Assembly (NCBI GenBank): GCA_964187785.1
Contig: OZ076414.1
Location: 55,676,001-55,740,000, forward strand
Length of the DNA: 64,000 nt
Source: Amphiscolops sp. MND2022
Taxonomy: Eukaryota
Direction of reading: 5' to 3'
This document shows positions 9,001-59,734 of this stretch, in pieces (positions within the stretch are counted from its first letter, which is position 1; each line of letters begins with the position of its first letter). The notes under the pieces were generated by a model. It saw only the letters and a list, made by a program, of their open reading frames with translations, was not told where the DNA came from and ran no database searches. A program made the translations under genes and the position numbers.

Positions 9001-12000
9001 CCAAGAAACTATCGAAGTCAGTAGCAAAAAGTAAAACTTGAAGAACACCCCGGAAAGTATCTTTTTCGTATTTTAATACTTCGAAACAGAAACCAGTAAT
9101 TAGAGATTAAAAGCTATTAACTACATCTTAAATGTGAATCATCCTGATTAAAATTCTTTTTTATTTTAAAAGAATAAAATTATTTTAAAAAGGTTTGCAT
9201 GCCAGAAGACTAAAACTAAAAAAGAGAGAAAAAAGAACAAAACTAGAAGGCAAAACATAAGTTTGGGAACAAAGCTTTCAACACAACAACTGCGTATTTG
9301 ACAGAAAAGAGATAAAACTGAGCTTCGAAACTTGCTTCATCTTAGTCAATCTTTGAATAAAGTTAGTCAAACTCTAGCTAAATCAGGCCAGGGATAGATT
9401 ATTAACCGATATTTTCGAAATTTAGTTTGATATGTTTTGATGGAATTTGTTGCAGATATTAGGGCTTTCAACAAAATGAATTGCATTCACAGAAAACATT
9501 TGCTTCAACGAACTCAATTTTTCTCAAAATTTTTATACACAACAGAAGCGTACAAACTTTTGGTTTCATAAACTTTTATATTATTCGTCGTAACTTCACC
9601 GTATGAGACATTATCATACGATTAATTACCCATCCCTGGACAAAACCATGCATGTAATGTGATCGATGCCATGAGGCATCAGTAAAGGGAACCTTTTGGC
9701 TTTGCTGTTTGTAGGAAGAAGTGCGTCTTCTGAGACAGGTTTGGTTATGTTGAACTTGAACTCGAACTCTCCCATGTTTTCTATTGCGAACTGCAGTTGT
9801 CGCTTGGAGTTGACGATGATGGACCCGAAATCGATGTCACTTCTGGGCAGCAGGGCATACTTGGAGTAGAGTGCCCTCACTGCTATCTTGATGGGGATAC
9901 ACGCAATCGTTTCCCCTCCACTGCCGGGCGCTGTGTTTGGATCTATTATCTGAAGACACCAAAAACCCGTAAATGATAAACTGGCATCGGACAAAGATAG
10001 TGCGATATCTAAAGGTTGGAATCATTACTTGTCAAAACTGCTTGAATGACGTGGAGTCTTTAATCAACCAGTTTTCGATTCGATCAACCCATCATTTAGA
10101 CATAGAAAGTTATCAAAAAGTAGATGTTTCGCAGAGGTTCCAAAACAAGAATATGAAAGTTTAGAAATTTTTCAAACACATCCCTATGTGAACACCGCAG
10201 AATAAAAACGACTGAAAATTCAATAATTAAATCAGAGATGAAATGAACAGCATGAAAAACACATCACATGAACTAGAGGTCACAAAAAACTCAACAAGAG
10301 TATCACTTCTTGCATGTTTCTGTGTTTTCTGAAGCTGTTTACGGGGTAGCACATGGTATTGACTGGCGAAAAATCGCCCGTTTTGATTTGCGTGTCGCTT
10401 ATCCGCTACTACTAATTGTAAGCATGGCATCGCTTCCGCTTAGCGACCCCGCTAACGCTATTAGCAGGTCAATTCACTGGTGTAGTACTAACATTGCATT
10501 TGATGATGGGCAGGTTGTTGATGTTGACCTCGTACTGGGAGACGAAGGTTATCTGCACTGTGGTCGGTCTGTCGTTGGGAAGAAGGGAGCCCCTGTTGGG
10601 ATACACACTGAACAGCTTCTCCATGTCTTCCGCATGTGCCCCCAGCTTCTCAACTGTCAGACTAAACAACAAAAGGAAAATTCGAGCCAGTGGAAGTCTA
10701 CTTTTTTAACTGAGACTCTTTTACTCTTTCCTGTTACCCCCCCCCTCAAAAGTTTACCACTTCAAAATTGTTTCTAAGTAGTCTGATCAAAAGTGAAACC
10801 TTTCTGCTTAACAGGAAATTAAATTCTATTAGAATAGTTTTTGTTTGAAATTTTTTTTACACATTGTGACTGTCATTAGTAGTAGTATGTGTTCCAATGT
10901 GGCCGGTATAAAGTGAGGAGTTCATTTACCCGAGAACTGTCCTATTTGAGTCAAATAACCTGTGAAGGTCATCGGACTCGATGAACTAATTATTTACTCT
11001 ACTAAAAGAACCTGTCAATTTTATCAGACTAGCCGTTGGCGAAAGTAATTATTTACTCAAATAAAAGAACCTGTCAATTTTATCAGACTAGCCGTTGGCG
11101 AAAGTAATTATTTACTCAAATAAAAGAAGCTGTCAATATTATCAGACTAGCCGTTGGCGAAAGTAATTATTTACTCAAATAAAAGAACCTGTCAATATTA
11201 TCAGACTAGCCGTTGGCGAAAGTAATTATTTACTCAAATAAAAGAACCTGTCAATATTATCAGACTAGCCGTTGGCGAAAGTAATTATTCACTCAAATAA
11301 AAGAACCTGTCAATATTATCAGACTACCGTCATTTCCTCTAGTGCCCCGCGGCCGCTTATGTTCCAAACTGTCAATATTATCAGACTATCGTCATTTCCT
11401 CTAGTGCCCCGCGGCCGCTTATGTTCCAAACTGTCAATCTTATCAGACTACCCGTTGGCGAAAGTCAAATAATCAACTTTCTCAGGTTGTTTTAGAATGA
11501 GAGCTACAATTTTATCCAATCATATTCCGTCAAGATCAATTTCTACCAACTTTTCCAATTTTGAAACCTTACCATCATACCTCAATTTTTGTAGTCACAA
11601 ACAAGTTACTTAAAATACCGAATTTTTGTGAGGATGTTAGAAAGCAGGCGAGAGATTTTGCTCCGTCGGGCCAGGGAGAATGGGCTACCCCACCTTACGG
11701 TGAGGCAAGCCGAAGAAGTGAATGGAGAGAATGGAGACCGGGCGATCTGGTTGATCGTCCCGGCTGAGCATAGTGTCGTCACGCTGAAGAACTTCCCTGG
11801 GAAGCTTCCGAAGCAAAGTAAAATTACAGACTTTTACAAGTAACTTGTTTAGTCTTTTCAAACCCAGCCCTTTTAAGGGCTACCAGTGATTTTTCTTTGA
11901 GTTTAAAGATTGACTTTCTCTTTAAACTTAAGGTTCTGATCCGGTTTCCTTTGAACTTTGTGGAACGCCAACTACAGGTTAGTTATTTCTTTTTCTTCGA

Positions 12001-15000
12001 ATCCCAGACCTCGTAAGGTTCACCTGAGATTTTCTTTGAGGTTAAAGAGATTTTCATTCTCTTTAATCTTAAGGGTCTGATCTGGTTTCTTTTGATCTTT
12101 GTTTAATGTTAATTATATATCAGTTTTTTGCGTTGTGATATTATTGGTCAGAAATCACAAGAATGTACTTAACCAATGTAGAGTCACTCAGTTTATTGTA
12201 ACCAATCAAAGGAGAGTTATAGATTCTCTCTTTAGTCTGAACAATATCATTTTATTCTGCAATCATGCCTAAGAGAAAGTTAACTAGTCGTGAAAAAGTC
12301 GGAGCGGAGTTCGGAATCCATGAACACAGAGGCACTAAGGAGAGGTGTGCCATCTGTCTTACACTTCGGAGGAAATGTTGGTGCTCGTGGGTTAGTTGCG
12401 GAGTGTGTGACTTTGTCTTCTGTAGAGCTGTCTGCTCTCAGTACATAGACAAATGTCCACACTGTCGCTCTACCTCTCTGAACATCCAACAGGAGTCAGA
12501 GGACGATGTCATCATGTCATCGAGCGACTAGTAAGTCAACTTTCTTTTCAACCCAGCCCTTTTAAGGGCTACCCTGTGCGAGAGATTGAAGTTGAAATGT
12601 TATTGCTTTCAATTTTTTCAATTGCATTGGTTTAATAATCGAATAGTTAAATTTCTATTTCACATGTGGGAAAAAAACTTCATCTTGAAGAAATCCATGC
12701 AAATATATTTTTTCAAGAGTCTATAAAACCATACATTTCCAGAATCCTCATGAAAAATACATGTCAGAAAACAATTCTAAAACTTGAAAAAATGTTTAAA
12801 GAAATTTTTTAGTGATTTTAGTGGAAAATATTAAGGAAAAATGATTTTTTCAAAAGTCTATAAAACCATACATTTCCAGAATCCTCATGAAAAATACATG
12901 TCAGAAAACAATTCTAAAACTTGAAAAAATGTTTAGAGAATTTTTTTAGTGATTTTAGTGGAAAATATTAAGAAAAGATGATTTTTTCAAAAGTCTATAA
13001 AACCATACATTTCCAGAATCCTCATGAAAAATACATGTCAGAAAACAATTCTAAAACTTGAAAAAACGTTTCGACAAAAATTTCTTGAAAAATTTCGAGA
13101 AAAAATGAAAAAAAATCAAAAAAAAATATTTTTTAAAAGTTCATTAAACCATACATTTTCAGAATCCTCATAACAAATACATCCCAGAAAACATATATAC
13201 AACTCAAAAAAACGTTTCAACAAATATTTCTCGAAAAAATTCGAGAAAAAATGAAAAAAAAATCAAAAAAAAATATTTTTTAAAAGTCCATTAAACCATA
13301 CATTTTCAGAATCCTCATAACAAGTACATCTCAGAAAACATATATACAACTCGAAAAAACGTTTCGACAAAAATTTCTTGAAAAATTTCGGGAAAAAATA
13401 TGAAAAAAAATCAAAAAAATTTTTTAAAAAAAGTTCATTAAACCATACATTTTCAGAATCCTCATAACAAATACATCTCAGAAAACATATATACAACTCA
13501 AAAAAACGTTTCAACAAATATTTCTCGAAAAAATTCGAGAAAAAATGAAAAAAAATCAAAAAAAAATATTTTTTAAAAGTCCATTAAACCATACATTTTC
13601 AGAATCCTCATAACAAGTACATCTCAGAAAACATATATACAACTCGAAAAAACGTTTCGACAAAAATTTCTTGAAAAATTTCGAGAAAAAATGAAAAAAA
13701 ATCAAAAAAAAATATTTTTTAAAAGTCCATTAAACCATACATTTTCAGAATCCTCATAACAAGTACATCTCAGAAAACATATATACAACTCGAAAAAACG
13801 TTTCGACAAAAATTTCTTGAAAAATTTCGAGAAAATATATGAAAAAAAATCAAAAAAATTTTTTTTTCGAAAGTTCATTAAACCATACATTTTCAGAATC
13901 CTCATAACAAGTACATCTCAGAAAACATATATACAACTCGAAAAAACGTTCCGACAAAAATTTCTTGGAAAATTTCGGGAAAAAATATGAAAAAAAAATC
14001 AAAAAAATTTTTTTAAAAAAAGTTCATTAAACCATACATTTTCAGAATCCTCATAACAAATACATCCCAGAAAACATATACAACTCAAAAAAACGTTTCA
14101 ACAAATATTTCTCGAAAAAATTCGAGAAAAAATGAAAAAAAAATCAAAAAAAATATTTTTTAAAAGTCCATTAAACCATACATTTTCAGAATCCTCATAA
14201 CAAGTACATCTCAGAAAACATATATACAACTCGAAAAAACGTTTCGACAAAAATTTCTTGAAAAATTTCGAGAAAATATATGAAAAAAAATCAAAAAAAA
14301 AATTTTTTTGAAAGTCCATTAAACCATACATTTTCAGAATCCTCATAACAAGTACATCTCAGAAAACATATATACAACTCGAAAAAACGTTTCGACAAAA
14401 ATTTCTTGAAAAATTTCGAGAAAAAATGAAAAAAAATCAAAAAAAAATTTTTTTTAAAAAAGTCCATCAAACCATACATTTTCAGAATCCTCATAACAAG
14501 TACATCTCAGAAAACATATATACAACTCGAAAAAACGTTTCGACAAAAATTTCTTGAAAAATTTCGGGAAAAAATATGAAAAAAAATCAAAAAAAAATTT
14601 TAAAAAAAGTTCATTAAACCATACATTTTCAGAATCCTCATAACAAATACATCCCAGAAAACATATATACAACTCAAAAAAACGTTTCAACAAATATTTC
14701 TCGAAAAAATTCGAGAAAAATATGAAAAAAAAAATCAAAAAATTTTTTTTTCAAAAGTCCAATAAACCATACATTTTCAGAATCCTCATAACAAGTACAT
14801 CTCAGAAAACATATATACAACTCGAAAAAACGTTTCGACAAAAATTTCTTGAAAAAATTCGAGAAAAATATTTTAAAAAATAAAAAAAATTTCAAAAGTC
14901 TATAAAACCATACATTTTCAGAAACCTCATGAAAAATACATCACAGAAGTCAGTTGTAAAAGTGGAAAAAATGTTTAGAGGAAATTTTTTGTTGATTTTA

Positions 15001-18000
15001 GTTAAAAAAAAAAGAAAAGAGTTTTTCAAAAGTCTATAAAACCATACATTTCCAGAATCCTAATGACTCGAGAAATTATGAAGAAATTTTTTGAGATCTT
15101 TGGAATTAATTTACAAAAAACTTTCACAATACTCAAATGTCACTTGAAAAAAAATGGAAATGAAGAAAGTTTATTATAGAAACTCAGCAAAAAAACGTAA
15201 TATTAAACTATCACAAACGTACGATAAATTTCCATATTTGTAGAGTACATGGGCAAAATAAATACAGTATAGTCCACATAAGTCTTGTCTTTGCAACCGA
15301 AAATTACACAAGAGTTTCACTGATCGGTTCGAATTGAATCGTATCTTTCTGTAGTAGTCCAACGGTCTTCCCAAGGAATCACCAAAATAGAGTATTCCGT
15401 CTCGATCCGCAATCATCACCCAATGGGTTCCGGGTTCAGTACTCGAGTCGCTGTTAATTAAACAGAAACTATTTTTGTCAATATTAAATGGAACCATATC
15501 TGCGGGAAAAGATCCCAAATATTTATACTTCAAGTTTTTAATTTTCGAGACAATAGATAATAGTTGTTCATTATCCATTCTTAACAACTGTTCCACTTTT
15601 GTCTAAATAAATTGTTGACAATCGTTCACCGAGGACAATCACTTCAATTGTTTCAGTCAGTGCTGTCTGGAAGAAAAGTTCTAGTCTGAGACTGGCAGCG
15701 ACTACATCAGGATAATACATTTGGACATTAGCCTCTTGTGTGGAGGTCAGATCAAACACTTGGACGAAATGATTCTCATACTCTGACAAAGGTATGTTTG
15801 GACCATCATCCTCAAATTTTAGAGCTTTCATCGTGGTAACATAAGTCTGAACAATATTTCTTGTATCCATCCTGACAATAACTTGATTTCCCCTCACGAT
15901 TCGCACTTCTCTAAGATCAAATTTTCTATAGTGAAAAGGGTTTGTTCCCAAAGTTCCAGTGAAAGCAGTGTTTGTATTCATTGCGATAGCTATTCGCCTA
16001 ATTGGTGCATTGTTGAAAATGTTCTCGTGAATAAACTGGTTCTGGTTGTTTGGAATAATGAATGTTTTACTAAGAACCTCTGTAAAGTTGTAACGAGCTG
16101 GTCTCTCCTTGATTGTTGCCTGGATAGTACGGATACAAGGTTCATCCACTGCAACTACTCTAGTAAAAAGAGAAGCTTCCTTGATTGTAGCATGGAAATT
16201 CTTTGTTTGGGTACTAATGAGATAAAAATTCGGTCGTGAACGAATGAGTCGAATTCTAACTTTGATATTGGGTAGAAGAAATTTGTCGCAAGTGAACACA
16301 TCGATCGCTAGCTTTCCATAAAACATTTTTTCTCCAGTGTTCACTGTCATTACTTTCCCCGTGAAAGGAGCGGAAGTAAAGTCGTTTGGGATATTTTCAT
16401 ACTGGTACCCTTGACATATTCCAATAGAATCTTTCAGACCTCGAGTTCCAGAAAATTCATTTGAAATTTGTGCTTTGTGAGGATACAATCCATTAGAAGT
16501 ATAAATTTGTTCATTGTTGAAGTAAACTTCACAGTTGGAGAAAAGCGAATGTAACGCATTGTTACTGAACATGACTTCATCTGCGTTTTCTAAGGCTACG
16601 CCATCCTTTTTCACTTCAACTTTCAATAGTAAATAAGTTTCCTGTAAGTCCAACATTACATTACGATCTGTCTCTAGATGGAAATCAATACTAGCTTCAT
16701 TCAGTGAATTAGTAGGGAAAGTCTGTTGAGTGTTGGACCAAAGAATAGGTTCCAAAATTGGAACTCCATCAAAAACATCTATTGAGGAGTGATTCACAGG
16801 AGTGGGTACAGACATTACTCTTTAATCTTTTTAAAGAAATCTTCGCGACTGCGTTTTCTCTTCTTTCGTTTAGAAATGAACCTTTTTGCTTTCCCTTTCG
16901 ACCTCCTAATTTTTTTCCGATGACCTCCTCCAATTTGTTTTTTTAATGTTGAAGAAGCTGTTTTCCTGATTGCTTTTTTGACGGATGATTTTCCGCTGAG
17001 GACATCCTCAACTTGCGGTATGGCTATATCGATAGCATCTCTTCCAATTTTTTTTGCAGCTGGTACAACAAAGCGTTTCAAGATAGGAAAAGCGGTACGA
17101 GCAATCGTACCAGCAAGTGCTCCGAGTCCTCTCCCTCGTTGACGTGGAACGCCACTAAAGTGAGGTAAATGAACATTTCTCATGATCAGATTGGAATCGA
17201 GTCTTTGGGACTAGCTTTCGTTTTTCTGAAAAGTAAAGTGAGTCGTGTTATGCCGACTGCAACGAAAGGGATTAATTCTCCTGTCGGACTTCTCAGTTCA
17301 ACTTTGATTGAATGTATTGAATTTTTCAAAAGTCTTCTGAATTGTAAATTGTCGAACGAAACATAATTGGAATACTTTGTGACGGATATAGAATCTCTTT
17401 GAATTTTATTATTGAACGGAAAGCATCTCAGAATTGGAGCTTTGGTATCACCAATGATTGAAAATTCAACGATATCAGTGTATACCATGACAGAGTGGAA
17501 ACGCAGAATATCTATTGGAAACTCACTCCTGTGAGGACCTTTGCTACTAAACCACACTGACTGACTAAAACCCAGTATCGAACATAAGTCCTGACTAGCG
17601 AAAACTAGTTGTGACTTGTCAGATGCTAACTCAATTTCACAGTGTCTAGTAATTGAATCAACCTTCCATTTTAGTTCGACACTTTGTCTGTTGCGCAACC
17701 TGAGTGCATCATTCATCGACTGAAAAATCTCATCTAATGATAAATACATTCCAGGCAGAATAGTCACAGATTCGTAAGATTCATTCAATGCTTCCCTCGT
17801 TTCTTCATTGTTGCTTTTTTTGGAAGTACTTCTCTGTGGTACGTACCAAAATTTACCCTCAGTAATGTTGTTATAAAGAGCAGGGTAAGTGATTTCAAGA
17901 AGAGCTACCTCCCAATCACCATCTAAGTACAATTGTTCGGGAAGAAAATTGGTAAACGAAGCAAGTGTATTGTCAGGGTAAATAGAAGAAGAAGCGTTCG

Positions 18001-21000
18001 AAACCAACTCGACAATAAAGTTATCCATCTGTCAAGTGATTTGACGAGACAATTCTGATTGGTAAAACTTTCCCAAAATTGTTTCTCCAGTCTGATCTTT
18101 GATTATGTAGGTAACAATAGGGTAGCGAGTAGCAATTTTAGTAATAGTGAACAATTCATCTGTGAATTGGGATTTATATCCTCGTCGAAAGGCTTTATCA
18201 ACTTTTGCGATTCGGACTCTGTCTCCGACGGAAAACTTTGCTTTACTTTGTCCAATTTTGAGAGGGTTGTACGAATTTCTGGCACCATACAAAACCTGAA
18301 GAAAATGTTCGTTCATCACATGCTTAGGTGCTAAGTTGGTGGCCGAGGACACGCGTGAATTTAGTGTTTCAACGAATGCGGGAAGCTCTTTCAAGTAATT
18401 GAAAGTATTCTTCTCCTCTAGATAACGATAGATAACATTTTTCAAGGATCGGATAACTCTTTCCGCGTAGGCTGCTTTAGTTTCACTGTTTGTATGATAA
18501 ACGACAATACCAACATCTTCACAAAAATTTTTAAAGTCACCGAGGAACTCTTTTCCACGATCAATCCAAAGTTTCTTGGGAAAATCCAATCCACTTGACG
18601 AACGTCCACACATCTTGACAAATGCATTTTCAGTACTTTTCGCACTCTTCGATTTCAGAGGTTCTACACGAACGAATCGTGAAAAAATGTCAACTGCAAC
18701 CAGTAAATACTTAACTCCTGAATTGTCAGATGCTAGTTTATCCATTTGCGCTAAATCCAGGCACCAAATATCATTGATAAATCTAGCTCGAGCAGAAAGT
18801 CGAACAAATTTTCCTCGTCTCTGTTTAAACTTTGTATAAGCACTCTTTGATTCGAGAAACGTTTCTACTTTCTTACGGGTAAGGCCACTGCTTTTACATA
18901 AACTTTTGATTGATCCATATGCTGAAGGACCTTTTCTGTACAATTTATTCAATTGTAATCTTTCAGAAAGCGTAATAGACCCATCCGGCATTGTCGTCAT
19001 TAAAAGCTTTAGAATTTTGAACAGTTGTTGGATCAAGATCTAGAACATTCAAAATTATTGTGAAGCGTGGATCGAATTCACCTTTCTTGCGTGTCAAGTT
19101 TGAAATAAAGTCCTCCACATCAATTTCAGTGTCAATATCGTCAACTATTATAGTTTTGTTGATCGAAAACTTGATGGAATCGTTCGTTGTCAGCTTTTTG
19201 AGAATTTTTTTTGCCGAGGAATTGTTCTTGTATTTATTCTCCAAGGTTTCTTCGAAATTGGGTAGCGACGATTTCAGAGGCGAATGGGGAGCAACTTTAC
19301 TAGTTTTATATTTAGGTTCAAAAACCATCGACTTACGATCAGTCTTCGGGGTTAATGACCCTCCTAATTTGAGATAAACTTGTCCTGGTGATTTTTCTTT
19401 TGTAGTTGTGGGTTCGAAGTAACTGTTGAATCGATTTTCCCACAAAGATAAGGGAATCAAGACAAACTTACTTTTGTCCATCAATCAAAATTATGTGCAA
19501 ACTTTTTCAAAACGCAACCACCAATCAATCTGATTAGCGAGAGTCCCTTCTCACTAGCTAGCAAAGCACGTCTTGTTCTCACAGAAGTCTTTGGGGAAAT
19601 TATCCGAATGATTAAAGATTCAAACCGTTTGATTTGCTTTCTCCGAATATCACAGAGATTCCCTTCTAGTAGATTTTTAACACACTCACATAAGAAACGA
19701 AGAAAGTCTTTGGAACATTTTTTGAGGAAAATTTTTTGGAGGGTTTTGTTGAAAGTCAGAAAGAGCTTCAGAGTAAAGTAATTCAGTGGTTTGATCATCT
19801 AACTCACACTGCCGAGCTCTACTGCTAGGTAGGTAAAACTGCGAAGGAAATGAAGTACAGTTTGTACAATAACGTATGAGATCATGAGTTTTTGGACTAA
19901 GGTCAATCATCAAGTGACCGAAAGGTTTTGTAGTAGCATCAATGTACCAATCTACTAGTTGACGTCCAATTCCTAATTGACGACTGAGAACTTTTACTTG
20001 TTGTACGTCACGCGGCGATTTGAAAAGAACAATATGCGTATTTTGTAGATCTATATCCCTACCGTTAGAGGATTTGTGAAAGAGATTGTGTTTAATGTAA
20101 ATACAACTCAACTTTTTGTGTCTTCCTGCAGTAGCCAAGTCGATGAATTTTTGCGATTTGTAAATTTCTTGACAGGAATCATCGAACACTAAAAGATAAT
20201 TGGTTCCATTATCTGGTAGATTGTCAATTAGATCAAAATCTAGCGATCCGATGAATTCTAACTTTGGAAACTCGCGAGTCATTTGTTCAAATAGAGGTTG
20301 ACTGTGTTTGAAAAAATACAAAACTTTGTCAAACTCAGGGAAAAAAGTTCTGCTTTTCAACATATCGAAAATCAAATGGGACTTTCCACAACCAGATGGA
20401 CCTACTATAGACATGAAAATCCTGTCTTTGGTGGAAATAATTTTGTTCATGTTAAGGTCTCGGAGAAGGTAAGATATAGCCAACAGCCCACGTTAAAATT
20501 GCAACCCAAACAGTTGACTCTTCACAAGAATTTGATAAAGCAATGCAAGTGATTGACGTTGAAACTAAAATGAAAATTAATAAACACTGAAAGAAAAAGA
20601 GGCTTGCGGATCTCGAACATTCTCGTCCCAAAAAGAACCAAGGTGATCGTTCTTGATTGTTTGAGTCAAACACAATCTGTTGAGGTGTAATTGTTTCCAA
20701 ACCATCAACACCATCACTCATTTCCGTGATCCAACAAACTAGATTTTGTGGTTGAATTTGGATAATGAGGAGACGATCATGATTTTGAAACAGTAAACCT
20801 AATCACACATCGAAATCACTGAAAAGCTTGGAATTATAGAACTTCAAATAGAGACAATAAAATAAACCAGTAATGTGTCCCAATAAACAAGAATTTGGTA
20901 GAATGGTATTGCTTTTGAAAACGTAACAATATCCGGCTCCTCTTGAATACGTTGTTTTCATGAAACCAGATGCGTCATGTAAAACTGCATGCATTCGGAA

Positions 21001-24000
21001 ACACTTCAGTCCACTGAATACTGCCTCGAGAGTTGAGTCACCAATTCCTATCAAACCGCCGAAAGGAGCTTGTCGATCAATTTCTATTAAATCAACTTCT
21101 GAACTGATGGAGAGACAACACGCCAAGAAAAAATTTTTACGTTTAGAATTTTTCTGGAAATGAGTATTGGTGGATATTTCTTTTTCAAGTGACAGAATCG
21201 AGTTCAAATTCATTGTTAGCCAAATGTTCACTGAGACTGTTCCAAAATGTCAATTTCAGGTACTGATATTGTTGACGTACAAAATTGTTTTAGTCGCAGG
21301 TATTCTTGACTAGAAAGGGCTAAGCTATTGATTGTAACAAACTTTGTCTTTTTAAATTGTTTAACTTCAATTTTACAGTTTGCAATTTTGTTATCTGTAC
21401 CCCAGAATGTCAATTCAAGTCTCCGTCTTCCGTTCGAATATTTGAAAGACTTGGAGTCTTTTATTGAGACAATTTCAATTTCTTTAGGTAACAGACTCGC
21501 TTCCAGTAGACTTAATTGTAAATGAAATTCAGGCTGACACTTGGATCCAAAAGTTTTGCACTCAATGAATTCAATTGTTCTTTTAACTTTTTTCCTTGTA
21601 ATAAGTTTTCTATTCTCTCCTATATCAATCATTATTCTATCCGACTCAATTCTAATGAAAAATGATTCATAATGAAAGCTCGATTATTTTTCACACGACG
21701 AGAAAGATGAATACAAAATACTTCAAAATACAACCATAACGAAAATAAAAAAGAACATTTAATCAAACTCTAAATGTGAATGTAGAGTTTTTCTTCCACA
21801 TTTTGTACTTTCTCAGTGATTCTCTCACAACTGCTTCCATCAGTTGACTATCGTGTCGTATTAGTTCCTCGAGTTCACCAACTCGCAGACTGAGTGCACC
21901 TTTCCGGATGAATTGATCATGTGTATCATTTCTAGTGTAGAGTTTCAATTGAATATATGTCTTTGAATAGTCGGTATTGTCATAGACTTTGAGGGACGCT
22001 CCCACAAATCGTCTCGGAGACTCACAAATATCCCAAAATTTAATTCCTTTCTCTCGATCTTCTTCCAAAGTAGGGAAATTGGACGGAGAATGACTTTGTG
22101 GGAAGTCTTGAATGTCTGTTCCATAGTTTGTATCTCCTTTGATGCACTCAAATTGTGTGTGAGAATCTTTATTGATTCGTTCCATACTTGACAATAATTG
22201 ACGAGTTTCATATAGAGAAAGAATAACGAGTTGATGTACTTTGTATTCCCCTCTGTCCTTCTTGAGAAGTTTGAAATGAACCCAGTCCGAAACTGTTTCC
22301 CTCTCATTTGAGTATTTTGGAATGTATACTCTAAGAGTTCTGAAAGGTACGAGGGAAAAGTCCCAACAATTTTCTTGTTCCAAAACTCCAACAGAATCTC
22401 GTTCTCTGTAATTGTTCAATGTTCGAAGTCCCAAAGTCCCAACTCCCATCTTAGGCTCAGTATTGGGTTCACTTGATGAAATGGAGGAAAGACTTCTTTT
22501 CATCTTGGTTGAATGTTTCAGGTAAAAGTAAAGTTAAAGTAGCTAGTAAAAAGATTAATAATTTTATTTATAATGAAGATGGAAGTAGATGTACCGAGTT
22601 CTTGAATTCCAGTTAAAAGGTGAAATAATGTTGAGTAGAATGACGAGTTGAATATTGACGTGACTATAATTGAACAAATGAAAGATTTCAAAAATCTGAT
22701 TCGCTTACACTTATGCTCGTTTGCTTGTCCTCGAGAGGACCAATCAAAAGGTTCGAATCATCGTTCTCGTCTCTCGTGTCTAGTCGGTGCCTCTTTCCTT
22801 CAATGGCCGAAGTTCCCATTCGCGGAATTCTCCTTTTGCGAGTCGCGACATTATCGTTGGCAGTTGACTGAGTGAATGAACTCTGATCGTTCAGTTCCCA
22901 GGCACCTTCCAACCTTTCCATGTCGTCTAAAAGTCCCAATTGATTGGCTGACAGCGGACAACGTGATAAGTCATGTTCGTAGAAAATCTCTCTCACACTT
23001 GGAGATATTGATTCACAATTCGTTACAGGTTGTAAAAGTAAGGTTGGGGTAGGGTCCAAAAATTGATGGCTAGGAATATTTTTGCGATGTAAAACTAACG
23101 ATGATAAGGCTACATCACTTTCTTGTTTCACACAGTGCATCCAAAGGTGGGACATTGAGAAGAGAACATCAGGAATGCAAATTTTGTTTGACACACTCCA
23201 ATCGTCCTGAAAAATTCGACTCTCTGTAACAAATACAATCTCTCCATTAGCTTCGTCCCAATGAAAAGTGATCTTTTCTTTGTCAGGTATTGTTTCAAAG
23301 CTGAATACTTTCATTTTAACAGTAGAATGAAATTTTAGGTGTCTAGTCTGGAGGAGATATGCAATGGAATGACTGTCGCCTGAAATCAATCAAGACGACC
23401 AACTCTCCAATAACAAAAATCTGTGATTGGTCACGACTTGGAATTTTCACTCTCTATCACACATTTGGAGAGGAATATCTTCTAGTGAAATCAGAGAATT
23501 AACTTCATTGGCTGTCACTCTAAATCATGAACTCGATCAAACGATTCAACACTTTCTCGCGAACCAATCAGAATTTTGTATTCGAGTTTATTATTTTCAA
23601 AATTAAAAGGAACTGACTAATTCAAAAGTTCCTACTTTTCACTCGCGATGCGTCATTTTTATCATTTCATTTTGCAGATAAAACCTTTCGTAGTACTTCG
23701 TTACTTTTCATTTTTGTAATAAATCTTTTCACTTTTGTGAATAACATTTTTCATGGCTTGTGGAACCCCCGATTTATTTCCACCTTTTTTTCAATCTTTC
23801 ACAGACTGTTGTTTGTTGGTCATTTTTGAATCTCAACCTTCACAAATCGACTTGAATAATTTCGAACAGTACGTCGTCGGTTCACATACAAAAATTTGTA
23901 AACAAGTTAACTGTTCTACTCACATAATTTTCTTTGATTCTCTCATACATTCCAAAGTAACCAAAATTTTTACGTCTACGAGTTTCAGATCACAACAGGT

Positions 24001-27000
24001 TGATTGTCTATTCACTGCGTTTAAATTTTATTTCACCGAAATTGTTGATCTGAAAGGTTCTATTTTTCAGAAACTGTTGGCTGCTGTTCACTTTCATCAA
24101 AGTCTACCTTATCCATCATTGAAACAACCTAGTTTGGCAAGAAAAAGATTATTCCGTAAACGATTCAAATTTCACTTTGCTAAAGCTATTTCTTCAAGAA
24201 GTATCCCTGGACCACGATTCAACGCAGACTTAATATCCAAAGTTGAACAAATCGTTTATTCACCTGTGGGTCTCGAATTTGTGAAATTAGTGGATTCACT
24301 ATCGTCTGGACAAAAAGTTACCCTTGATCATTTGCAGACCATCTTATCGCTCAATTAATTTACAAGATGCCGCACGATCGCAAGCAGTGTGACGTTTGCA
24401 ATAAACTTATTGCGAAAAATAATTTTGCTCGTCATATTAAATCTCATCAACACCGATGTCCAAATTGCCCCAAGACATTTGGAAAATTGGTGAGATTACA
24501 ATATCATATTGCAACAAAACATGGTGCAAATCGTGCGAAATCATTCGTTTGCAGAGTGTGTCATCAACCTTTCCAGACCTTTCATCAACTATCTTTCCAC
24601 AATCGTTCCCAACATCAAAATTATCCTTCAGCCTCCAACGTCAACAAGGAAATAGATCTGAGTGAATTCAACTCCGATCCAAATCTCTTGAGTGAGATGC
24701 GTACTGTACAACATTTTCTTACAGACTCAAAAATCCAAACAAGTAGGAAAATTGTTTATAATTTCAGACTGAATTCGCTAGATGAAAAGTTCATTGATGA
24801 GAAATTGGACTTTATCCATTCTGAACTTCCTTGTGCAGCAAAACTCAACTTTTCGTTTGGGTTTGTCTTGCAAAACATTCAGAACCTCGGCGAGTTTCGA
24901 TACTTTTACGCTGAGAATAACAATCCCGTTTTTCATTTCCCAGTCATATTTTCCACATTAGAAGACTTAGAATTTATCAAGGATCGTTATGAAGATGAAA
25001 ACGTCTTCGAGAGTATTATTCAACAGCGTCCAGACACAAAATGGCGATTTTACTGTGTGACTAATGTGACTTTCTTTGTTTATCTGATGCCTCGAGTTGC
25101 ACTTGGTTGTACTGATGTAGATTTACCCAATGCTTTGATTCGCAATAAGAGTGTTAAATGCTTTCTCTCCGACAGTAATAGCAACCCGTATCACGACAAT
25201 TTGTGTCTTTTTCGCGCTATAGCATTCGATCTTCATGGGAGTGAGAACTTGTCGAATAATACCCTTCTCTACTTCACATCGTTCTTGAGCGAAAGTGGAC
25301 AAGATGCAATTGATTTCCCTGGTGTTTCGCCAGAGGAAATTCCTCTAGTAGAAAAAATTACATCAGTTAATTTGAATATGTTTTCTTTGTATTACAATGA
25401 AGAAGGGTTACTACATGGGGAACTCTCACGAAGAAGTGCAGGACTTTTCAAGAAAGGACTATCTTTAGTTCAGTACAACAACCACGTGTGTTGGGTCAGT
25501 AACATCAACACTCTCTTGAAAAACTTCAGATGTCACAACTGTGACAAGTATTTCACAAAGAGCTCTCTATTGGATCGTCATTTGCTGAGTTGTGATGACA
25601 ATGTTAAACACACTTATCCCAATGGACCGTACGAACTTAGAGAAACAATTTTCGAGAAGCTGGAGGATATAAACATTCATGTTGAGACGGAGAGACGATT
25701 GTTCCAAAATTTAGCTGTGTTTGACTTTGAAGCTCTCGCTGTTCCACTAGGAAGCAACACTTCCAATCAAGAGAACACAACATGGATAGCTCGCCATGTT
25801 CCAATAAGCGTAGCTATTTCATCTAATCTTTGCGATCAACCTATTTTTATCTGCTCCAGTGATCCCAGGGAACTTGTCAGTCGGTTTGTCGATGAACTCA
25901 AAAAGATATCGGAAAAGAGTGCAACGCAATACAGAGATTTGTTCAAAAACGAACTCGATGAGATTGCAAAACGTGTTAACCATCTGATAGAAAAACTTCC
26001 TAGAAGAAAAAGACGACAACCTACAAATGATAATCTCCTAGATGAAGCTCACGAAGACAACAACGAAGAGATTGATGATGAAGACATTCAGAATGATCCC
26101 AATCTCATGGGTTTATTTCAGGAAAAAGAAACACTCACTCGAGTTTTATTGGAGTTGGAAAAGTACTGTGACTATCTACCTGTATTCGGATTTAACAGTT
26201 CGAAGTATGATCTGAATCTAATCAAACAGTATCTGTTGGAGTATCTCCTACTAGAACACGAATGTTCTCCATCGGTAATTAAAGTTAGCAACAAGTATAT
26301 TAGTTGCAGTTTCATGGGAATTCAGTTTCTAGACATTTTGAACTTTCTCGGAGGAGCAACATCCCTCGACAAATTTTTGAAAGCTTATGGTGCATCGGAA
26401 GAGAAAGGATTTTTTCCCTATGAATGGTTCGATGATGTAGTTAAATTGGAACAACCGTGTCTGCCCCCAGCTGAAGCGTTTTTCAGTAAATTGAAAAACT
26501 GTAATGTTCTTGATTCTGACTATCAACATTACATTCAGTTATTGAATCAAGGTGTTGCTGTTCCTGATGCTTTGAGAAAGCTTGGTTTGAAGGAAATACC
26601 AAAGACTAGAGAAGAGAACTATGAAGCCTTGGAAAGAATCTGGATTGAAGAAGGCATGTTGACGTTTCGTGATTTCTTGGAATGGTACAATGTTAAAGAT
26701 GTGAAACCTACCCTTGAAGCTATGTTGACGATGATGAAATTTTATCATGATAGAGGTATCGATATGTTGAAGCTTGGTTGTACTCTACCAAATTTAGCAA
26801 ATCGTATTCTTCATTCCTCGACAAACTTCAAATTCTTTCCATTCATCGAATCAGATCGACAGTATGATGATTATATTCGAAAATGGTTAACAGGAGGTCC
26901 ATCTATCATATTCACTCGATATGCGAAAGTGGGGGATACAAAAATCAAAAATTCTTCCAATGTCTGCAAAGCTATTGTTGGAATTGACGCTAGCCAATTG

Positions 27001-30000
27001 TATCCGTTTGCGATGACAAAAGAACTACCCACTGGTCCATACACGAAGTGGGAATTGAAAGATGATAATCGATTTCATCCAAACAGGTTGAGACGGAGTC
27101 ATTTTGAAGAATTGGTTCTCGAATTCCAACAATTCAAACGTCCTGAATGTTGCATACAAACTCAGTTCAATCGAAAGCAAAAGAAGTTTGGAAGATTTTC
27201 TGTGGATGGTTACTGTTCACATTGTTCCACAGTGTTCGAAGCAATGGGATGTTTCTATCATTTTTGTCACTGTCAAGAGAAACGTCGTTTACCTTTAGAA
27301 GACATCGAAAAAGGAGTGAAACGTCGACAATCTGATGCTTTCCGCAGAAGATTCCTCAGAAGTAAGGGATTAAACATTGTTGAAATTTGGGAATGTCAGT
27401 GGTGGAGAATGGTGAAATCAAACGAAGAAGGAGCTAAAGATTTCATGAAAAAAAGTCACCCCTTCATTCCCCCATTATCCGAAGCTAGTCTTCTCCAACG
27501 AATTAGACAGGAACAACTCTTTGGAGTTTTGGACTGCACTATTGAGGTTCCCATGGAGTTGCGAGATCAATTTGCTGATTTTCCACCAATCTTCAAAAAC
27601 TGCGATGTTTCTCGTGAAGATATAGGAACACACATGCAATCCTTCGCGCAGACAAATAACTTATTGAAAAAACCCACTCGCATGTTGATATCGAGTTTTA
27701 AACTAGAGCGGGGTCCAATTATAACACCACTCTTGAACTTTTATCTCGAAAAAGGATTGATTGTTAGAAAAATTCATTGGTTTCTTCAATACAAACCGAA
27801 GAAAACGTTTGAAGGGTTCGTTGCTTCGGTAGTGCAAGCACGCAGAAGAGGTGATGAAAACAAGGACTCTTCTGTTGTGGCTGAGACAATGAAACTGATC
27901 GCGAATTCTTCCTATGGATATCAAATCATGGATCGTTCGAAACACACAAACACCAAGTTTGTTGTGGGATCAGAGGTGGATAAGTTAGTCAATAATCGAA
28001 TGTTCAAGCGTTTCCACCACCTACCTCGCGAAATCTTTGAAGTGGAATTGGGAAAGAGGAAAATTGAACACAAAGAACCTATCATTGTTGGTTTTTTTAT
28101 ACTCCAATATGCTAAACTTGTCATGCTCCAATTATATTACAACTTTTTCAAAATCTTTTGTGATGATACCAAGTTCGAACTGATTGAGATGGATACGGAT
28201 AGTTTATACATGGCAATATCCGAGACGAATATCGAAGAAATCATCAAGCCTGAGATGAAGACTTTGTGGCAAAACTGTCGGTGGGCCGATTGTAGTGAAA
28301 GGGAATTCAAAGCCGATGGCCGATTCAATTTCTTCCCTAGAAACTGTTGCAGTCACCACAACAAATATGATCAAAGAACACCTGGTCTTTTCAAAGAAGA
28401 GTTTCGATGTACTGAAATGGTAGCCTTGTGTTCAAAGACATACTGTTGCTTTGATGCCCAATCAGAGACAGTAAAAATCAGTTGTAAAGGTGTCAACAAA
28501 TCTGCTCTGAAAAATGACAATCCCATGATGAAAATGAGGAGTGTGTTGCAAAAACAGGAGGAAATAACGTCTATTAACAGAGGATTCAGAGTGGTAGAAC
28601 AGAAAGAGATTTGTACATATGAACTGAAGAAACGGGGTCTCTCTTATTTCTATCCTAAACGAAAAGTTCAAGAAGATGGTATTCATACTGAACCTTTAGA
28701 TATTTAGTATTCTTATTCAGTTTTGTTTCAATTTGTACTCCCATTCATTTTCCAATTGGAAAAAGATTTTTTTTTACTTTTGTTTTAATTGGAGTCTGAG
28801 AAACTCGATAGATCAGGTGTATACTTTCCCAAGGAAATGAAAATGTTTGAACCTTGATTCACAACAAAGTCTCTTGTCATTAAGATAATTGAGTATTCAA
28901 ACGAGTCAATCACTTGTAATTTCTCAGTAGGTAATTACCTTCACTGACAAGTAGACTCATAAGCGGGAAACATTCTATCCGGGTAGTCTGATAAGATTGA
29001 CAGGTTCTTTTATTTGAGTAAATAATTACTTTCGCCAACGGGTAGTCTGATAAGATTGACAGGTTCTTTTAGTTGAGTCAATAATTACTTTCGCCAACGG
29101 ATAGGATTGACAGTTTGGAACATAAGCAGCCCCTTGGGGCACTAGAGGAAATGAGGTGTAGTCTGATAAGATTGACAGTTTGGAACATAAGCAGCCCCAA
29201 GGGGCACTAGAGGAAATGACGGGTAGTCTCATAAGATTGACAGGTTCTTTTATTTGAGTAAATAATTACTTTCGCCAACAGCTAGTCTGATAAAATTGAC
29301 AGGTTCTTTTAGTAGAGTAAATAATTACTTTCGCCAACAGCTAGTCTGATAAAATTGACAGGTTCTTTTAGTAGAGTAAATAATTACTTTCGCCAAAGGC
29401 TAGTCTGATAAAATTGACAGGTTCTTTTAGTAGAGTAAATAATTAGTTCATCGAGTCCGATGACCTTCACAGGTTATTTGACTCAAATAGGACAGTTCTC
29501 GGGTAAATGAACTCCTCACTTTATACCGGCCACATTGGAACACATACTACTACTGTCATTCTATTCGAATTTACTGCTTTTTGTGACTCAAAAAATCAGG
29601 CTGTAACTACAACATCTTCGAGACTGCTTAATGTGCAAGAAGCGATTGAGGGAACATTCATTCGAGGGAACAGTAATTGGACACCAATGATGGGGTTAAA
29701 TGATTCAATTAATGAGAAAATTTAACGGGGTTCATTTCTTGGTCATTATTGCCACAAACTTTTAAAACCAATAAAAAGTTTCCTCTAGTCAAATTTGCAC
29801 CATACGCGAAAGGACCATACCCAGGACATAACAAAAATTCTAACCAAATTCCAACTAAAATGTGAAATAATTTTCCAAAATTAGGACTAACTGGAACCCG
29901 CAGTCGTATCTTCCTTTGTTCTTCAGACTGATAGTCTGCTTGACAGTCTCGCCGACCCTGTTGGTGCCAAAGTCAATGCCTCCTTCGGTGCCCTTGGGGA

Positions 30001-56316: not shown

Positions 56317-57069
56317 TTAAGTTGAAAGGGGGGCATACAGGGTATTTATGACTTTTACTTCGAAAAATATGGAATTGTTTTTTAGCCAGGGGTTCTCTGG
56401 GTTCATGAGTTCATCATGTGGGATGAAGCACAAGATGGTGATTGCTGTGTTGCTGGTTGTGGGAATAGGTTTCTTGAAGCACTCACTGTTATTGTTATTC
56501 GTCACAATGAGCTGTTTGTAGGGTTTGTAAATATTGCCTTGACCAAGGAGGTGTATCTCGATAACGCCTTGGAAGGGCCAAGTGAGTATCTCATCGTAGG
56601 GTCCCGGACACATAGCCAAGCATACTGACATGTATTTCCCTTTGGCAGTGTCGATGCCATAAGGGTAAGCTCGTAGATGAAAGGTGTACCCAAAGGGTTG
56701 TGAGAAGAAGATAGGGCTACAGACGTCTTTTAGGCTATTAGGATCACAATAGGGTGCTCTTACATGAGACAAACTTTTTTCGTATTTTTCAGCATTCTGA
56801 AAAATATCAGAAAATTGATCAAGCCTCCAAATAACTTTGTAGAGGTTCCAATCCCGTGGAATTGATTTCTTTTCGATACGAAGGATTCGCATCTCAAGTG
56901 CGTCGAGCTTTTTACTGATCTCGTGTATCATATCAGAATCAAATGTGTCATCTTTATATTGGGTGATATTGAGTTTTTGTCGAAGCAATAGTAACTCATT
57001 GATTAGGGAGTCCGTAAGGGACCTTTCATCTTCCAATTGTTCAATAAGGGTAGATGAGCTTGTGTTCAT
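56317..57069 (-). CDS. TRAF-like protein: coiled coil + MATH/TRAF-C domain, no RING or zinc fingers (250 aa)
   Basis: VIWRLDQFS, SPIFFSQPFGYTFHLRAYPYG, GKYMSV, GPYDEILTWPF, F.KP, FIPHDEL, LKNNSIFFEVKV follow the TRAF-C consensus. Confidence 0.9.
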   Translation of the reverse strand: MNTSSSTLIEQLEDERSLTDSLINELLLLRQKLNITQYKDDTFDSDMIHEISKKLDALEMRILRIEKKSIPRDWNLYKVIWRLDQFSDIFQNAEKYEKSLSHVRAPYCDPNSLKDVCSPIFFSQPFGYTFHLRAYPYGIDTAKGKYMSVCLAMCPGPYDEILTWPFQGVIEIHLLGQGNIYKPYKQLIVTNNNNSECFKKPIPTTSNTAITILCFIPHDELMNPENPWLKNNSIFFEVKVINTLYAPLST

Positions 57070-57105
57070 CTTGATAAGTCGTTCTGAAATTCAATGGAAA
57101 AGACT

Positions 57106-57615
57106 TTAAATAAATGCTGAAATATCTCTAATAGGTACCACAATCCTCTGGTAGCCTAGGGTCGGATTTTCCAATGTAAATTCTTGACGGTTAGAATCCC
57201 AGAATACAATATTCCAATGATTATATTCGCGTTTCAAGAGATAATTTAATTCGGTCCGGAATCGTGGGTTCCTGGTGAAAATATATTTATTAGCAGCTTC
57301 CTCGTTTTTTCGTTGTTGTCGTAGTTTCTCGTGAGCCGAGAGGGAAGCTTTTTGCCTTTTATGAGAACGCTTAATGGACGTTGAATGAGGTCGTTTAGTG
57401 GGTAGGGGTGTTGTTTTTAAGTTGTTGCGCGGAGGAGGTGGTGCTGTTTCAGTAACACCTTCTGCAATAGTTTCCGTTGAGAGAAACTCTAAATCTGTTG
57501 GGGAGAGCAAGGGGAGATCAAGTAGTCCGCTGTTGTCGAGTTTTGGTTCACCTGTTAATAACTCGATTTCTTCAGCCACAGTTTTGTCGGTTTGCATATT
57601 CTGAATACTAAACAT
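57106..57615 (-). CDS. Unknown accessory protein (163-169 aa): acidic N-terminus, Pro-rich linker, basic NLS-like patch
   Basis: Intact ORF between env and TRAF with its own splice acceptor; KRPH...KRSHKRQK. Confidence 0.7.
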   Translation of the reverse strand: MFSIQNMQTDKTVAEEIELLTGEPKLDNSGLLDLPLLSPTDLEFLSTETIAEGVTETAPPPPRNNLKTTPLPTKRPHSTSIKRSHKRQKASLSAHEKLRQQRKNEEAANKYIFTRNPRFRTELNYLLKREYNHWNIVFWDSNRQEFTLENPTLGYQRIVVPIRDISAFI

Positions 57616-57625
57616 AAAAATACAA

Positions 57626-59734
57626 TTACACTGGAGAAACAGTATGGGTATTCGAAGTAGGGGGCCTACTTATGGCAGGGTAAATGTGTTCGAGGGTTTC
57701 GTGCTCATTGTAATTTTTGTCTGGAGGGGTATCTGAGACCATTGGGTCATGTTGGGGAACTTGATTAAGTGTTGATATCATCGAAACTGTGAATAGATTG
57801 TAGGTTGCTGATAGAAGTATTTTGCCAATACCCCAAGAAGCTCCTGTAACTCGGTGTAGTTCAAATGAGCGAAATGTTATAACAATCACATTGACCAAAA
57901 ACTTGATAAGAAGAAATCCACCAAACCACTGTCCCAATTTGCTAAACCAGTATTCGATAATACCAAAAGTGCTGATGAACTGTTCCTTGAAATATCCTGG
58001 TGATATCATGTTATCCACATAGAAATTTGTACGTGGTGCAAAGTAACCAAATTCGTCTGGTCCTTTATCGGCAGCTGAAGGTATAATGAGTTCTCGTGAA
58101 AACTTTTGCAAGGCATTCCTCGAAGCCGCGCTGATCAGAATATTGTCCCAAAAATCGCTGAGTTGTCCTTTTGTGTACATTCCAGCATCTTGAGACTCAT
58201 CGAAAGCATCTTTTGTGAAAGGAGAAATCTCTTTCGGACCGAAGATAGCAGGTCTATCTCTATGTGTAGGCTCTGGATTTAAAGAAAACCAAGAGTCCTT
58301 GTCTTGCATATCTAGTTGAAAAAGGTTCTTTATTCTATCTGTGCAATTTTGGGTATTTGCGTTAGGGTAGGTTTGTCTGGTGATGGGGTCTACGAATTGA
58401 ATTTGTCCCTTGTAGAATATGGGTATTTTGTCATAACAATTGTTCATGACATGAAGAGGTGATGAAATCAGTGGGCATGAATAGAGCCAGGCGAGACTAC
58501 CATCAGTTTCAAGGAACATGGATCTATTTCCAGTAAGCATGTATCCAGCAAGGCGTGGATTTTCCAAAGACAGCATTAAAATAGTTAGAATTTGGGTTCG
58601 TTCCTGTTCGCACTGGTTTTTCAACATTTGAATTTCGGAAGATTGCAGTGCTCGGGTGCTTTCGAAGAACAGGTAATCCAGTTTTGTTCCAACTTGCATT
58701 TCATAATCCATGTTGAGCCAAGTATTAACGTACTTGTCTTTAACTGTGGCATCTCTGTTGTACACGTAAAGTCCAGGTTTCCCAGAATTGTCTGTGGAGT
58801 ATTGGAGGGTATAAGATCCTCTTGTTATCCCCATCTTTCTTCCGGAGGCCATGTCAAATCCACCGGTATGTATCACAATGTACATGGACTCGTAATTTGT
58901 GGGATATACGTCGTTTGGTTTGTTGCAGAATTTTTGAGGGTAGTTCTTCACTTCGAACAAAAATTTGGAGGAGGAATCGTTGGTGCTCACCATGTGATAC
59001 CTGTGTTCATTCTTTATCATATTCACATGTTCTTCTTTCAATACTGAAAGTACACAGTTATCTGGGTGGTCCCAAATATAAGCGTAGGGATCCAAGGATG
59101 TGCTTTGGCAACCCAGATCGTCAAGTTTGCATGGGAGAGGATTTCCATTTACATTGTGAACTGTTCCATCTCTCAGCTTGACGGGTAGGGTAACATCTTG
59201 AATGTGACTCTCAAAAGTATCTTTGATCATCCAAGACCTTCCAGTGCAATGGTTTCTGTTTTCTTCGCTCTTCTTTCCGTTCGTATAGGACTGAGTTAGT
59301 TTGTTTCCCTTTTTAAACTGGACCATGTGATCCAATATTTGTATCTTTCCCTCTTCTCGTGCTCTTCGACATTGTTCGGGGCTCAAATCGATATCGCTAG
59401 TTATTGTACTTTGTTCTGCATCGATACTCGCATGGTCATGATATCCACAATGCCATTTGAATCTACTGTGCTTTAGGCGGCACATAGTGGCATTGAGTTC
59501 TGTACGAAAGTGCTTCGTGTAGACAGTGATTATGGCTGGGTTGATTTCAATATTTTCTGGGGAAACGTGGCAGGGTCTCACTTGATTGAGCGCATATAAT
59601 TTGTTTTCGGTCATTTCTCCACAGTCATAGTGCGATACACTAAGCCTTTGTGCGATGTCATCCAGGTTTGGATTGGGGAGGCTATTGATTAGGGAGTAGC
59701 ACGTAATGAATAATATCAAAATTTTACTGCACAT
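57626..59734 (-). CDS. env: Envelope fusion glycoprotein, chuvirus (Jingchuvirales)-like class III fusogen (702 aa)
   Basis: Signal peptide; HYDC, C...HCG.H.H, C...C, W...DNC, QCEQER, ENPRLAGY, SCP, CYDKIPI, DAGMYT; C-terminal TM. The cysteine spacing matches chuviral glycoproteins as I recall them. Confidence 0.8.
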   Translation of the reverse strand: MCSKILILFITCYSLINSLPNPNLDDIAQRLSVSHYDCGEMTENKLYALNQVRPCHVSPENIEINPAIITVYTKHFRTELNATMCRLKHSRFKWHCGYHDHASIDAEQSTITSDIDLSPEQCRRAREEGKIQILDHMVQFKKGNKLTQSYTNGKKSEENRNHCTGRSWMIKDTFESHIQDVTLPVKLRDGTVHNVNGNPLPCKLDDLGCQSTSLDPYAYIWDHPDNCVLSVLKEEHVNMIKNEHRYHMVSTNDSSSKFLFEVKNYPQKFCNKPNDVYPTNYESMYIVIHTGGFDMASGRKMGITRGSYTLQYSTDNSGKPGLYVYNRDATVKDKYVNTWLNMDYEMQVGTKLDYLFFESTRALQSSEIQMLKNQCEQERTQILTILMLSLENPRLAGYMLTGNRSMFLETDGSLAWLYSCPLISSPLHVMNNCYDKIPIFYKGQIQFVDPITRQTYPNANTQNCTDRIKNLFQLDMQDKDSWFSLNPEPTHRDRPAIFGPKEISPFTKDAFDESQDAGMYTKGQLSDFWDNILISAASRNALQKFSRELIIPSAADKGPDEFGYFAPRTNFYVDNMISPGYFKEQFISTFGIIEYWFSKLGQWFGGFLLIKFLVNVIVITFRSFELHRVTGASWGIGKILLSATYNLFTVSMISTLNQVPQHDPMVSDTPPDKNYNEHETLEHIYPAISRPPTSNTHTVSPV

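Follow-up and report, generated by a model that had tools for sequence, protein, structure and literature searches.

One Polinton (Maverick) in the 64,000-nucleotide stretch of DNA analysed here (hereafter, the window) carries at its left end two small genes, each followed by a histone-type 3′ hairpin, and the first of them, ORF1, encodes a micro-protein whose C-terminal PIP box is predicted to dock on PCNA. The feature is real. We give roughly even weight to a combined model in which the two genes form a hairpin-ended S-phase cassette and ORF1 is a PCNA-docking protein free of a degron. The features concerned are listed here by position in the window:

10878..29554, no strand assigned: Polinton (Maverick), family A of the genome, 18,677 bp
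10878-11213 and 29219-29554: inverted ends of the Polinton, 336 nt, 96% identity
11634..11843, + strand: ORF1, 69 aa, first ORF of the Polinton, 756 nt inside the left end
11814..11837, + strand: PIP box of ORF1, Q61-S-K-I-T-D-F-Y68, with TD at positions 5-6
11861..11885, + strand: histone-type 3′ stem-loop after ORF1, AACCC AGCCCT TTTA AGGGCT ACCA; stem-loop proper at 11866-11881
12143..12206, + strand: candidate promoter before ORF2, with three CCAAT/ATTGG boxes at intervals of about 30 nt
12265..12531, + strand: ORF2 (ZF), 88 aa, Cys-rich and possibly RING-like, with an acidic SIM-like tail
12550..12574, + strand: second histone-type 3′ stem-loop, after ORF2; stem-loop proper at 12555-12570, 3′ flank ACCC
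12685..15164, no strand assigned: satellite of 137/147 bp between the cassette and the core genes, repeat families D1, D2 and D6
15174..20450, − strand: core block of adenain-like protease, putative capsid proteins, integrase and packaging ATPase
18032-19000, − strand: integrase (Pfam rve, E 2.6e-11)
19686-20450, − strand: packaging ATPase, A32-type (Pfam Pox_A32, E 3e-6)
24367..28707, + strand: putative protein-primed family B polymerase, 1446 aa, with N-terminal C2H2 fingers

The element has the terminal inverted repeats, 6-bp target duplication, integrase and packaging ATPase that define a Polinton/Maverick; its termini read AGTAGT, and the duplicated target GTCATT lies at 10872-10877 and 29555-29560. 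The adenain-like protease is a weak match (Pfam Peptidase_C5, E 0.016). The putative capsid proteins, so labelled by analogy with Polinton gene sets, gave no match in searches of Pfam families and the PDB; they have 1140 homologues, all without a name, and are encoded by long intact ORFs in the expected arrangement. For the 1446-aa protein, Pfam and PDB searches matched the zinc fingers only and not a polymerase; we read it as a putative family B polymerase from polymerase motifs and from gene order.

Several further observations concern the architecture of these elements. Tandem repeats of 59 to 65 bp lie in and beside the terminal inverted repeats (window 10925-11465 and 28921-29462). The word GTATAAAGTGAGGAG, possibly a promoter or origin site, is common to families A and B near their otherwise different termini (window 10904-10920; L072:532), and both families carry an AT-rich satellite, different in each, directly after the hairpin cassette (window 12685-15164; L072:2400-4900). 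At residue 131 of a 201-aa ORF before the polymerase (window 23753-24358, + strand) stands KRLF, a cyclin-docking-like RxL motif; every family inspected has a homologue of this ORF. Elsewhere in the window, a 702-aa chuvirus-type fusion glycoprotein (56317-59734, − strand; PF24664, E 1.5e-39) adjoins a MATH-domain ORF; direct repeats at about 54218 and 61809 enclose both, which likely belong to an envelope-bearing LTR element. The segment 38001-45000 is strongly C-skewed (GC skew about −0.5) and contains an internal duplication of 1082 nt.

Judged by its copies, ORF1 behaves as a real gene under purifying selection. The protein is laid out as a conserved N-terminal helical part (about aa 4-41), a variable linker and the C-terminal PIP box; a structure model of low confidence (pLDDT 56) places helices at residues 5-15 and 23-33. 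A DNA search of the 1.07-Gb genome gave 31 matches. Twenty-seven ORF1 starts are distributed over 16 loci, and of these 16 have the full PIP box, one has I at position 8, and 10 have no PIP box, being truncated, interrupted or frameshifted; among the dispersed copies, 9 of 11 are intact with a consensus PIP box. Within this genome, five intact lineages that have diverged to 60-86% identity with the window protein keep the reading frame and differ at dS of about 0.25-1.1. Their dN/dS values range from 0.24 to 0.73 (below 1 in 10 of 10 pairs), and the length of gap runs is a multiple of three in 6 of 6 cases inside ORF1 vs 3 of 30 outside, frame statistics that are inflated because the lineages were picked as intact, with gap runs that are not independent events. 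The first-pass annotation had named conservation in related copies, beforehand, as a point on which its proposal could be refuted; within this genome, both the ORF and the anchors of the PIP box are kept.

A word search found no homologues of ORF1 outside this genome. Four matches came from a profile search against 1.84 billion representatives, three of them corresponding to broken copies also present here. The fourth relative (P0125/P0127) comes from another genome, is 55% identical and 56 aa long, and stops before the PIP box; it weighs against universal conservation of the motif, and may itself be a broken copy. No Pfam family matched ORF1 at E 0.1, PDB sequence and fold searches (with the model at pLDDT 56) returned nothing meaningful, and the Atlas recognition score was below a useful level.

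The C-terminus of ORF1, KQSKITDFYK followed by the stop codon, fits the PIP consensus Q-x-x-[ILM]-x-x-[FY]-[FY] and leaves one residue after the motif, without K or R at the +4 position. The window has 141 ORFs with a length of at least 50 aa, and no other among them contains a PIP match. Across 300 simulated elements, a match fell anywhere in 64, in the last 12 residues of an ORF in 6, and in a terminal position with T[DE] in 1, under a somewhat lenient null, since the simulated elements averaged 32 ORFs vs 47 in the real one. Within the motif, Q, K, I, T and F are invariant in six aligned copies; the codons of position 2 vary (AGT, AGC, TCG, TTA, TTG), Q, I and F are fixed, and the changes D>E and Y>F are conservative. 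At position 8, a single intact lineage carries I in place of Y, and all intact lineages have TD or, in one of them, TE. The +4 basic residue is absent: the window protein and most intact copies end one residue after the motif, and two array copies extend three residues further, with V at the +4 position. The flanks are basic, with a net charge of +2 to +3 in 7-residue flanks (+3 in the window copy), almost all of it N-terminal, in agreement with the positive flanks described for PIP-box proteins (PMC6881253).

The first-pass annotation had described a Polinton micro-protein (11634..11843) with a terminal PIP box and, because the protein ends one residue after it, without the +4 basic residue needed by CRL4-Cdt2, and this description holds. 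The degron signature is given as Q/N-x-x-Psi-T-D-aromatic-aromatic-x-x-x-R/K (PMC3973308); since ORF1 lacks it, the resistance to CRL4-Cdt2 degradation that had been proposed is fairly inferred. The consensus with TD is there, but the claim of p21-like high affinity was overstated, as the basic C-terminal tail of p21 is missing. Basic flanks are described as adding up to four orders of magnitude to p21 affinity (PMC6881253), and with one residue downstream of the PIP box, p21-level affinity should not be assumed for ORF1. We predict, with good confidence, that ORF1 binds PCNA.

An unlikely alternative, yet the strongest of those considered, is a version of the first-pass proposal in which ORF1 is a plain p21-like competitor, stalling host replication and thereby freeing nucleotides or forks for the element. 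PIP boxes containing TD have been described as outcompeting other PCNA partners (PMC3973308), and the lack of a degron, together with TD or TE in all intact lineages, would suit such a role. The basic C-terminal flank of p21, however, is absent from ORF1. Further, the N-terminal part is conserved as much as the PIP box (51 of 72 bases invariant in codons 1-24 vs 16 of 24 in the PIP box), which a bare competitor would not need; this pattern, with a linker that is not conserved, suits a two-part adaptor better than a bare inhibitor. Histone-type mRNAs are destroyed once replication stops, and a stalling factor encoded by a hairpin-ended message would therefore switch itself off.

The partner gene and the histone-type hairpins had been missed in the first-pass annotation. 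Nine Cys residues of ORF2 are invariant across five copies, including family B at 36% identity, and the acidic SIM-like tail is present in family A. A cross-brace RING fold, which would need eight zinc ligands, is suggested by the structure model (pLDDT 59), whose top Foldseek match (E 0.099) and top Z score (3.0) were weak and fell on the RBX2 RING, and by Atlas leads to RING-type clusters at 0.85-0.89 (below 0.9, and so leads only). Pfam gave no match for ORF2, and a word search with the ZF alignment gave no homologues.

The distance from the stop codon to the hairpin is 22 nt for ORF1 and 23 nt for ORF2. AGCCCT TTTA AGGGCT occurs twice in the window, vs 0.04 occurrences expected, after only these two genes of the element and in sense orientation. 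All four core histone genes of the host end in AACCC GGCCTT TTTA AAGGCC ACCA; the flanks of the Polinton hairpins follow those of the host (AACCC on the 5′ side; ACCA after ORF1 and ACCC after ORF2 on the 3′ side), the 5′ flank not being the Rfam consensus ccAAA, and the first stem pair is A-U in the Polinton hairpin vs G-C in the host. Over 11 distinct ends (7 Polinton, 4 host), 66 of 66 cells are paired, with two-sided changes in 3 of 6 pairs; the shuffle test of this covariation is inflated by the relatedness of the ends and is not to be read as a probability. The G-C second pair, the U-A top pair and the UUUA loop are invariant, so that the structure expected of a histone 3′ end (6-bp stem, 4-nt U-rich loop, G-C second pair, U-A top pair, covariation) is found in full. 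The G of the second pair has been described as the only base-specific contact of SLBP (PMC10388802; PMC3884669).

Genome-wide, the A-U-closed hairpin has 57 matches vs 1 for the reversed control, and all 57 lie in the left ends of two Polinton families (A and B), an assignment made from a match to ORF1 or ZF before the hairpin, or from flanks in common with such copies. A looser pattern has 6277 matches vs 0 in the control, the 100 listed all being of the histone or the Polinton form. On Rfam RF00032, the Polinton hairpins score 18.5-19.8 bits and the host histone ends 25.7-30.2, with the gathering cut-off at 34; at that threshold, no match was found in the whole window.

The CCAAT/ATTGG boxes lie at −122, −92 and −63 in the window and at −121, −91 and −62 in a diverged copy. 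Host histone genes have 2-3 CCAAT boxes, yet so do two core Polinton genes, and no promoter words beyond the CCAAT boxes are common to the cassette and the host histone genes. No AATAAA follows ORF1 or ORF2, which is uninformative, as 11 of 14 genes checked also lack it.

The host genome contains tandem histone quartets, SLBP and a canonical PCNA, from which we infer that the host is an animal. The RNA-binding domain of SLBP was found in the genome (near G000:C2:10225965), and PCNA (G000:C8:32922513-32923352) matches the human protein at E 2e-91; the gene is intronless and encodes 279 aa with an acidic C-terminal extension (L041:1033-1872, − strand). A U7 snRNA candidate scores 33.9 bits vs a cut-off of 34 and has a fitting Sm site (motif as given in PMC5054213). 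Downstream pairing with this candidate reaches p<0.05 in 3 of 23 distinct ends (host H2B and two ORF1 array variants); p is 0.086 and 0.30 for the two hairpins of the window, and host H2A, H3 and H4 are not significant. The candidate itself (G000:C1:48204247-48204302, − strand; L148) has the Sm site AAUUUUUCUAG and a 3′ hairpin, and its 5′ end is complementary to a T-rich element after host H2A and H2B, not to a purine-rich one.

We consider it probable that the Polinton hairpin functions through SLBP. It is improbable, more so than the competitor role, that the hairpins are something other than histone-pathway 3′ ends (an SLBP decoy or storage signal within a longer RNA, a general transcription stop or a DNA-level site), with expression of the PIP gene independent of S phase. 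The pairing with the U7 candidate in only 3 of 23 ends, the Rfam scores below threshold and the retention of the hairpin in some copies without an intact ORF before it are all consistent with another role. Against this stand a sequence-specific hairpin placed in sense orientation after only two genes of the element, its spacing of 21-23 nt from the stops in two families, and the copying of host-specific flanks.

The distribution of the cassette bears on whether it serves the element's own replication. In family A, ORF1 and ZF are both present, with two hairpins. Family B, whose polymerase is 51-56% identical to that of family A, has ZF in 3 of 3 elements inspected (one of them covered end to end), a hairpin called in two, 21 nt after the ZF gene, and no ORF1. 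In 4 of 4 inspected elements of distant, more abundant families, neither ORF1 nor ZF nor hairpin was found. In a capsid search, 101 of 1615 candidates were scored and fall into three identity bands; ORF1 is missing from families B, C and D, which retain the core genes and occur in many copies. The absence of ORF1, ZF and hairpin from other families marks the cassette as accessory and dispensable. Further, no such arrangement was seen in 41 loci with capsid genes, taken from viral and metagenome contigs and totalling 177,232 bases, a weak negative given that these loci are mostly partial and probably lack the element ends. Two hairpin matches occur in them, neither preceded within 100 nt by the end of an ORF, and an unrelated ORF of 179 aa (L126) has a PIP consensus close to its terminus; the hairpin pattern has 0 matches in the viral contigs.

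Two arrangements of left ends within the genome are also worth recording. At G000:C11:23642000-23677000 (L082-L086), truncated Polinton left ends of about 1-2 kb each form a head-to-tail array on one strand; several subfamilies are included, many copies start at the element terminus, and there are no core genes in 60 kb. This array could reflect repeated insertion into an earlier copy's satellite, or a small-RNA trap for the cassette. At G000:C10:780000-800000 (L088, L089), a family A element is adjacent to a stack of several left ends of family B, all of which carry a hairpin; this suggests that the ends of these elements serve as insertion sites for one another.

ORF1 might instead be an adaptor of the p66/Pol32 kind, required in transposition for processivity or repair, that connects host PCNA with the element's polymerase or integrase, an idea to which we give marginally less credence than to another role for the hairpins. 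Polymerase subunits carry a PIP box at their extreme C-terminus, as ORF1 does, and a scan of the 1446-aa polymerase found no consensus PIP box of its own. Families B, C and D, however, are numerous and have the core genes without ORF1. Further, a related, transposon-derived family-B2 polymerase without a PIP box is described as processive alone and not stimulated by PCNA (PMC3511435), which also agrees with the first-pass statement that protein-primed PolBs are not known to need PCNA. A core role in repair for integration, as suggested there, is doubtful given three complete-looking Polinton families of this genome without ORF1. That the PIP match is incidental, kept through a nearby conserved DNA signal or the youth of the copies, is very improbable. 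In favour of this reading, synonymous changes in its codons are few, and the sample is small, from one genome, with an outside relative (P0125) lacking the motif; against it, a terminal match with T[DE] arose in only 1 of 300 simulations, and free positions change where anchors do not, at dS of about 0.25-1.1.

In the combined model, to which we return, ORF1 and ORF2 would make up an accessory cassette that a single Polinton clade conserves at its left end. The host SLBP/U7 pathway would cut their mRNAs after the hairpin, limiting expression to S phase or to stages in which histone mRNA is stored. ORF1 would then dock on replication-fork PCNA through its PIP box, escape CRL4-Cdt2 and persist. 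As a two-part adaptor with a helical head and a PIP tail, it may place a partner, from the element or the host, on PCNA and compete with host PIP proteins, and so help the element in dividing or germ-line cells rather than serve the element's own polymerase. The PIP box and the hairpins independently point to the same part of the cell cycle, which raises the standing of both. A more far-reaching version is possible but doubtful: as non-histone genes in the SLBP/U7 pathway, the pair would form an S-phase or maternal/early-embryo module, in which a PCNA adaptor resistant to degradation and a ubiquitin ligase of RING/SIM type together remodel fork loading, for example to block the inheritance of silencing on the element.

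If the model is true, an integrated DNA virus ties its gene expression to host S phase without regulators of its own, and poly(A)-selected RNA-seq would miss the resulting mRNAs, so that Polinton activity may go unnoticed. The PIP micro-protein would also offer a direct entry to how Polintons meet the host replisome, their life cycle in animals being largely unobserved.

Among known systems, the PIP degrons of p21/CDKN1A, Cdt1 and Set8, as described in PMC3973308, resemble ORF1 in the canonical PIP consensus and the rare TD pair; ORF1 differs in having neither the +4 basic residue nor a C-terminal basic flank, and in being encoded by a mobile element. Membership of the Cip/Kip (p21) family was considered and rejected, as ORF1 lacks a CDK-inhibitor domain, with no Pfam match at E 0.1, and has neither a basic C-terminal extension nor a PDB relative. 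Small clamp-binding proteins include p15PAF, POLD4/p12 and the phage beta-clamp inhibitors, and PIP boxes occur in transposons, for example in LINE-1 ORF2p. In these, too, a small protein or motif engages a sliding clamp to selfish or regulatory ends; ORF1 showed no similarity to them in sequence or fold, however, and its motif sits on a stand-alone micro-protein.

The "Oncoid" genes of Polintons and adintoviruses, interpreted as cell-cycle manipulators (PMC8502044), are accessory ORFs too, likewise small and carrying paired CxxC along with short linear motifs. Identity with the adintovirus Oncoid (LxCxE beside paired CxxC; PMC8502044) was rejected, since no LxCxE occurs in the 17 element proteins scanned. 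Neither PCNA nor hairpin occurs in the main text of that paper. Among the papers listed from mainly open-access literature, no precedent appeared for a Polinton with a histone stem-loop, SLBP, PCNA or a PIP box; the supplements of PMC8502044 and of a nematode Polinton preprint (10.1101/2023.08.22.554363) could annotate such ORFs.

The closest likeness of the hairpins is to the histone stem-loop (RF00032; PMC1924863, PMC3884669, PMC10388802), with which they have in common the 6-bp stem, the UUUA loop, and the G-C second and U-A top pairs; the likeness to histone mRNA ends extends to the host flanks AACCC and ACC, the short distance after the stop and an intronless ORF. The histone hairpin pathway has been described as exclusive to replication-dependent histone genes (PMC1924863; PMC4604434), and natural non-histone genes on this pathway would, if confirmed, be an exception to that exclusivity. 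The Polinton hairpins differ from histone mRNA ends in just this respect, following non-histone genes, and in closing the stem with an A-U rather than a G-C first pair.
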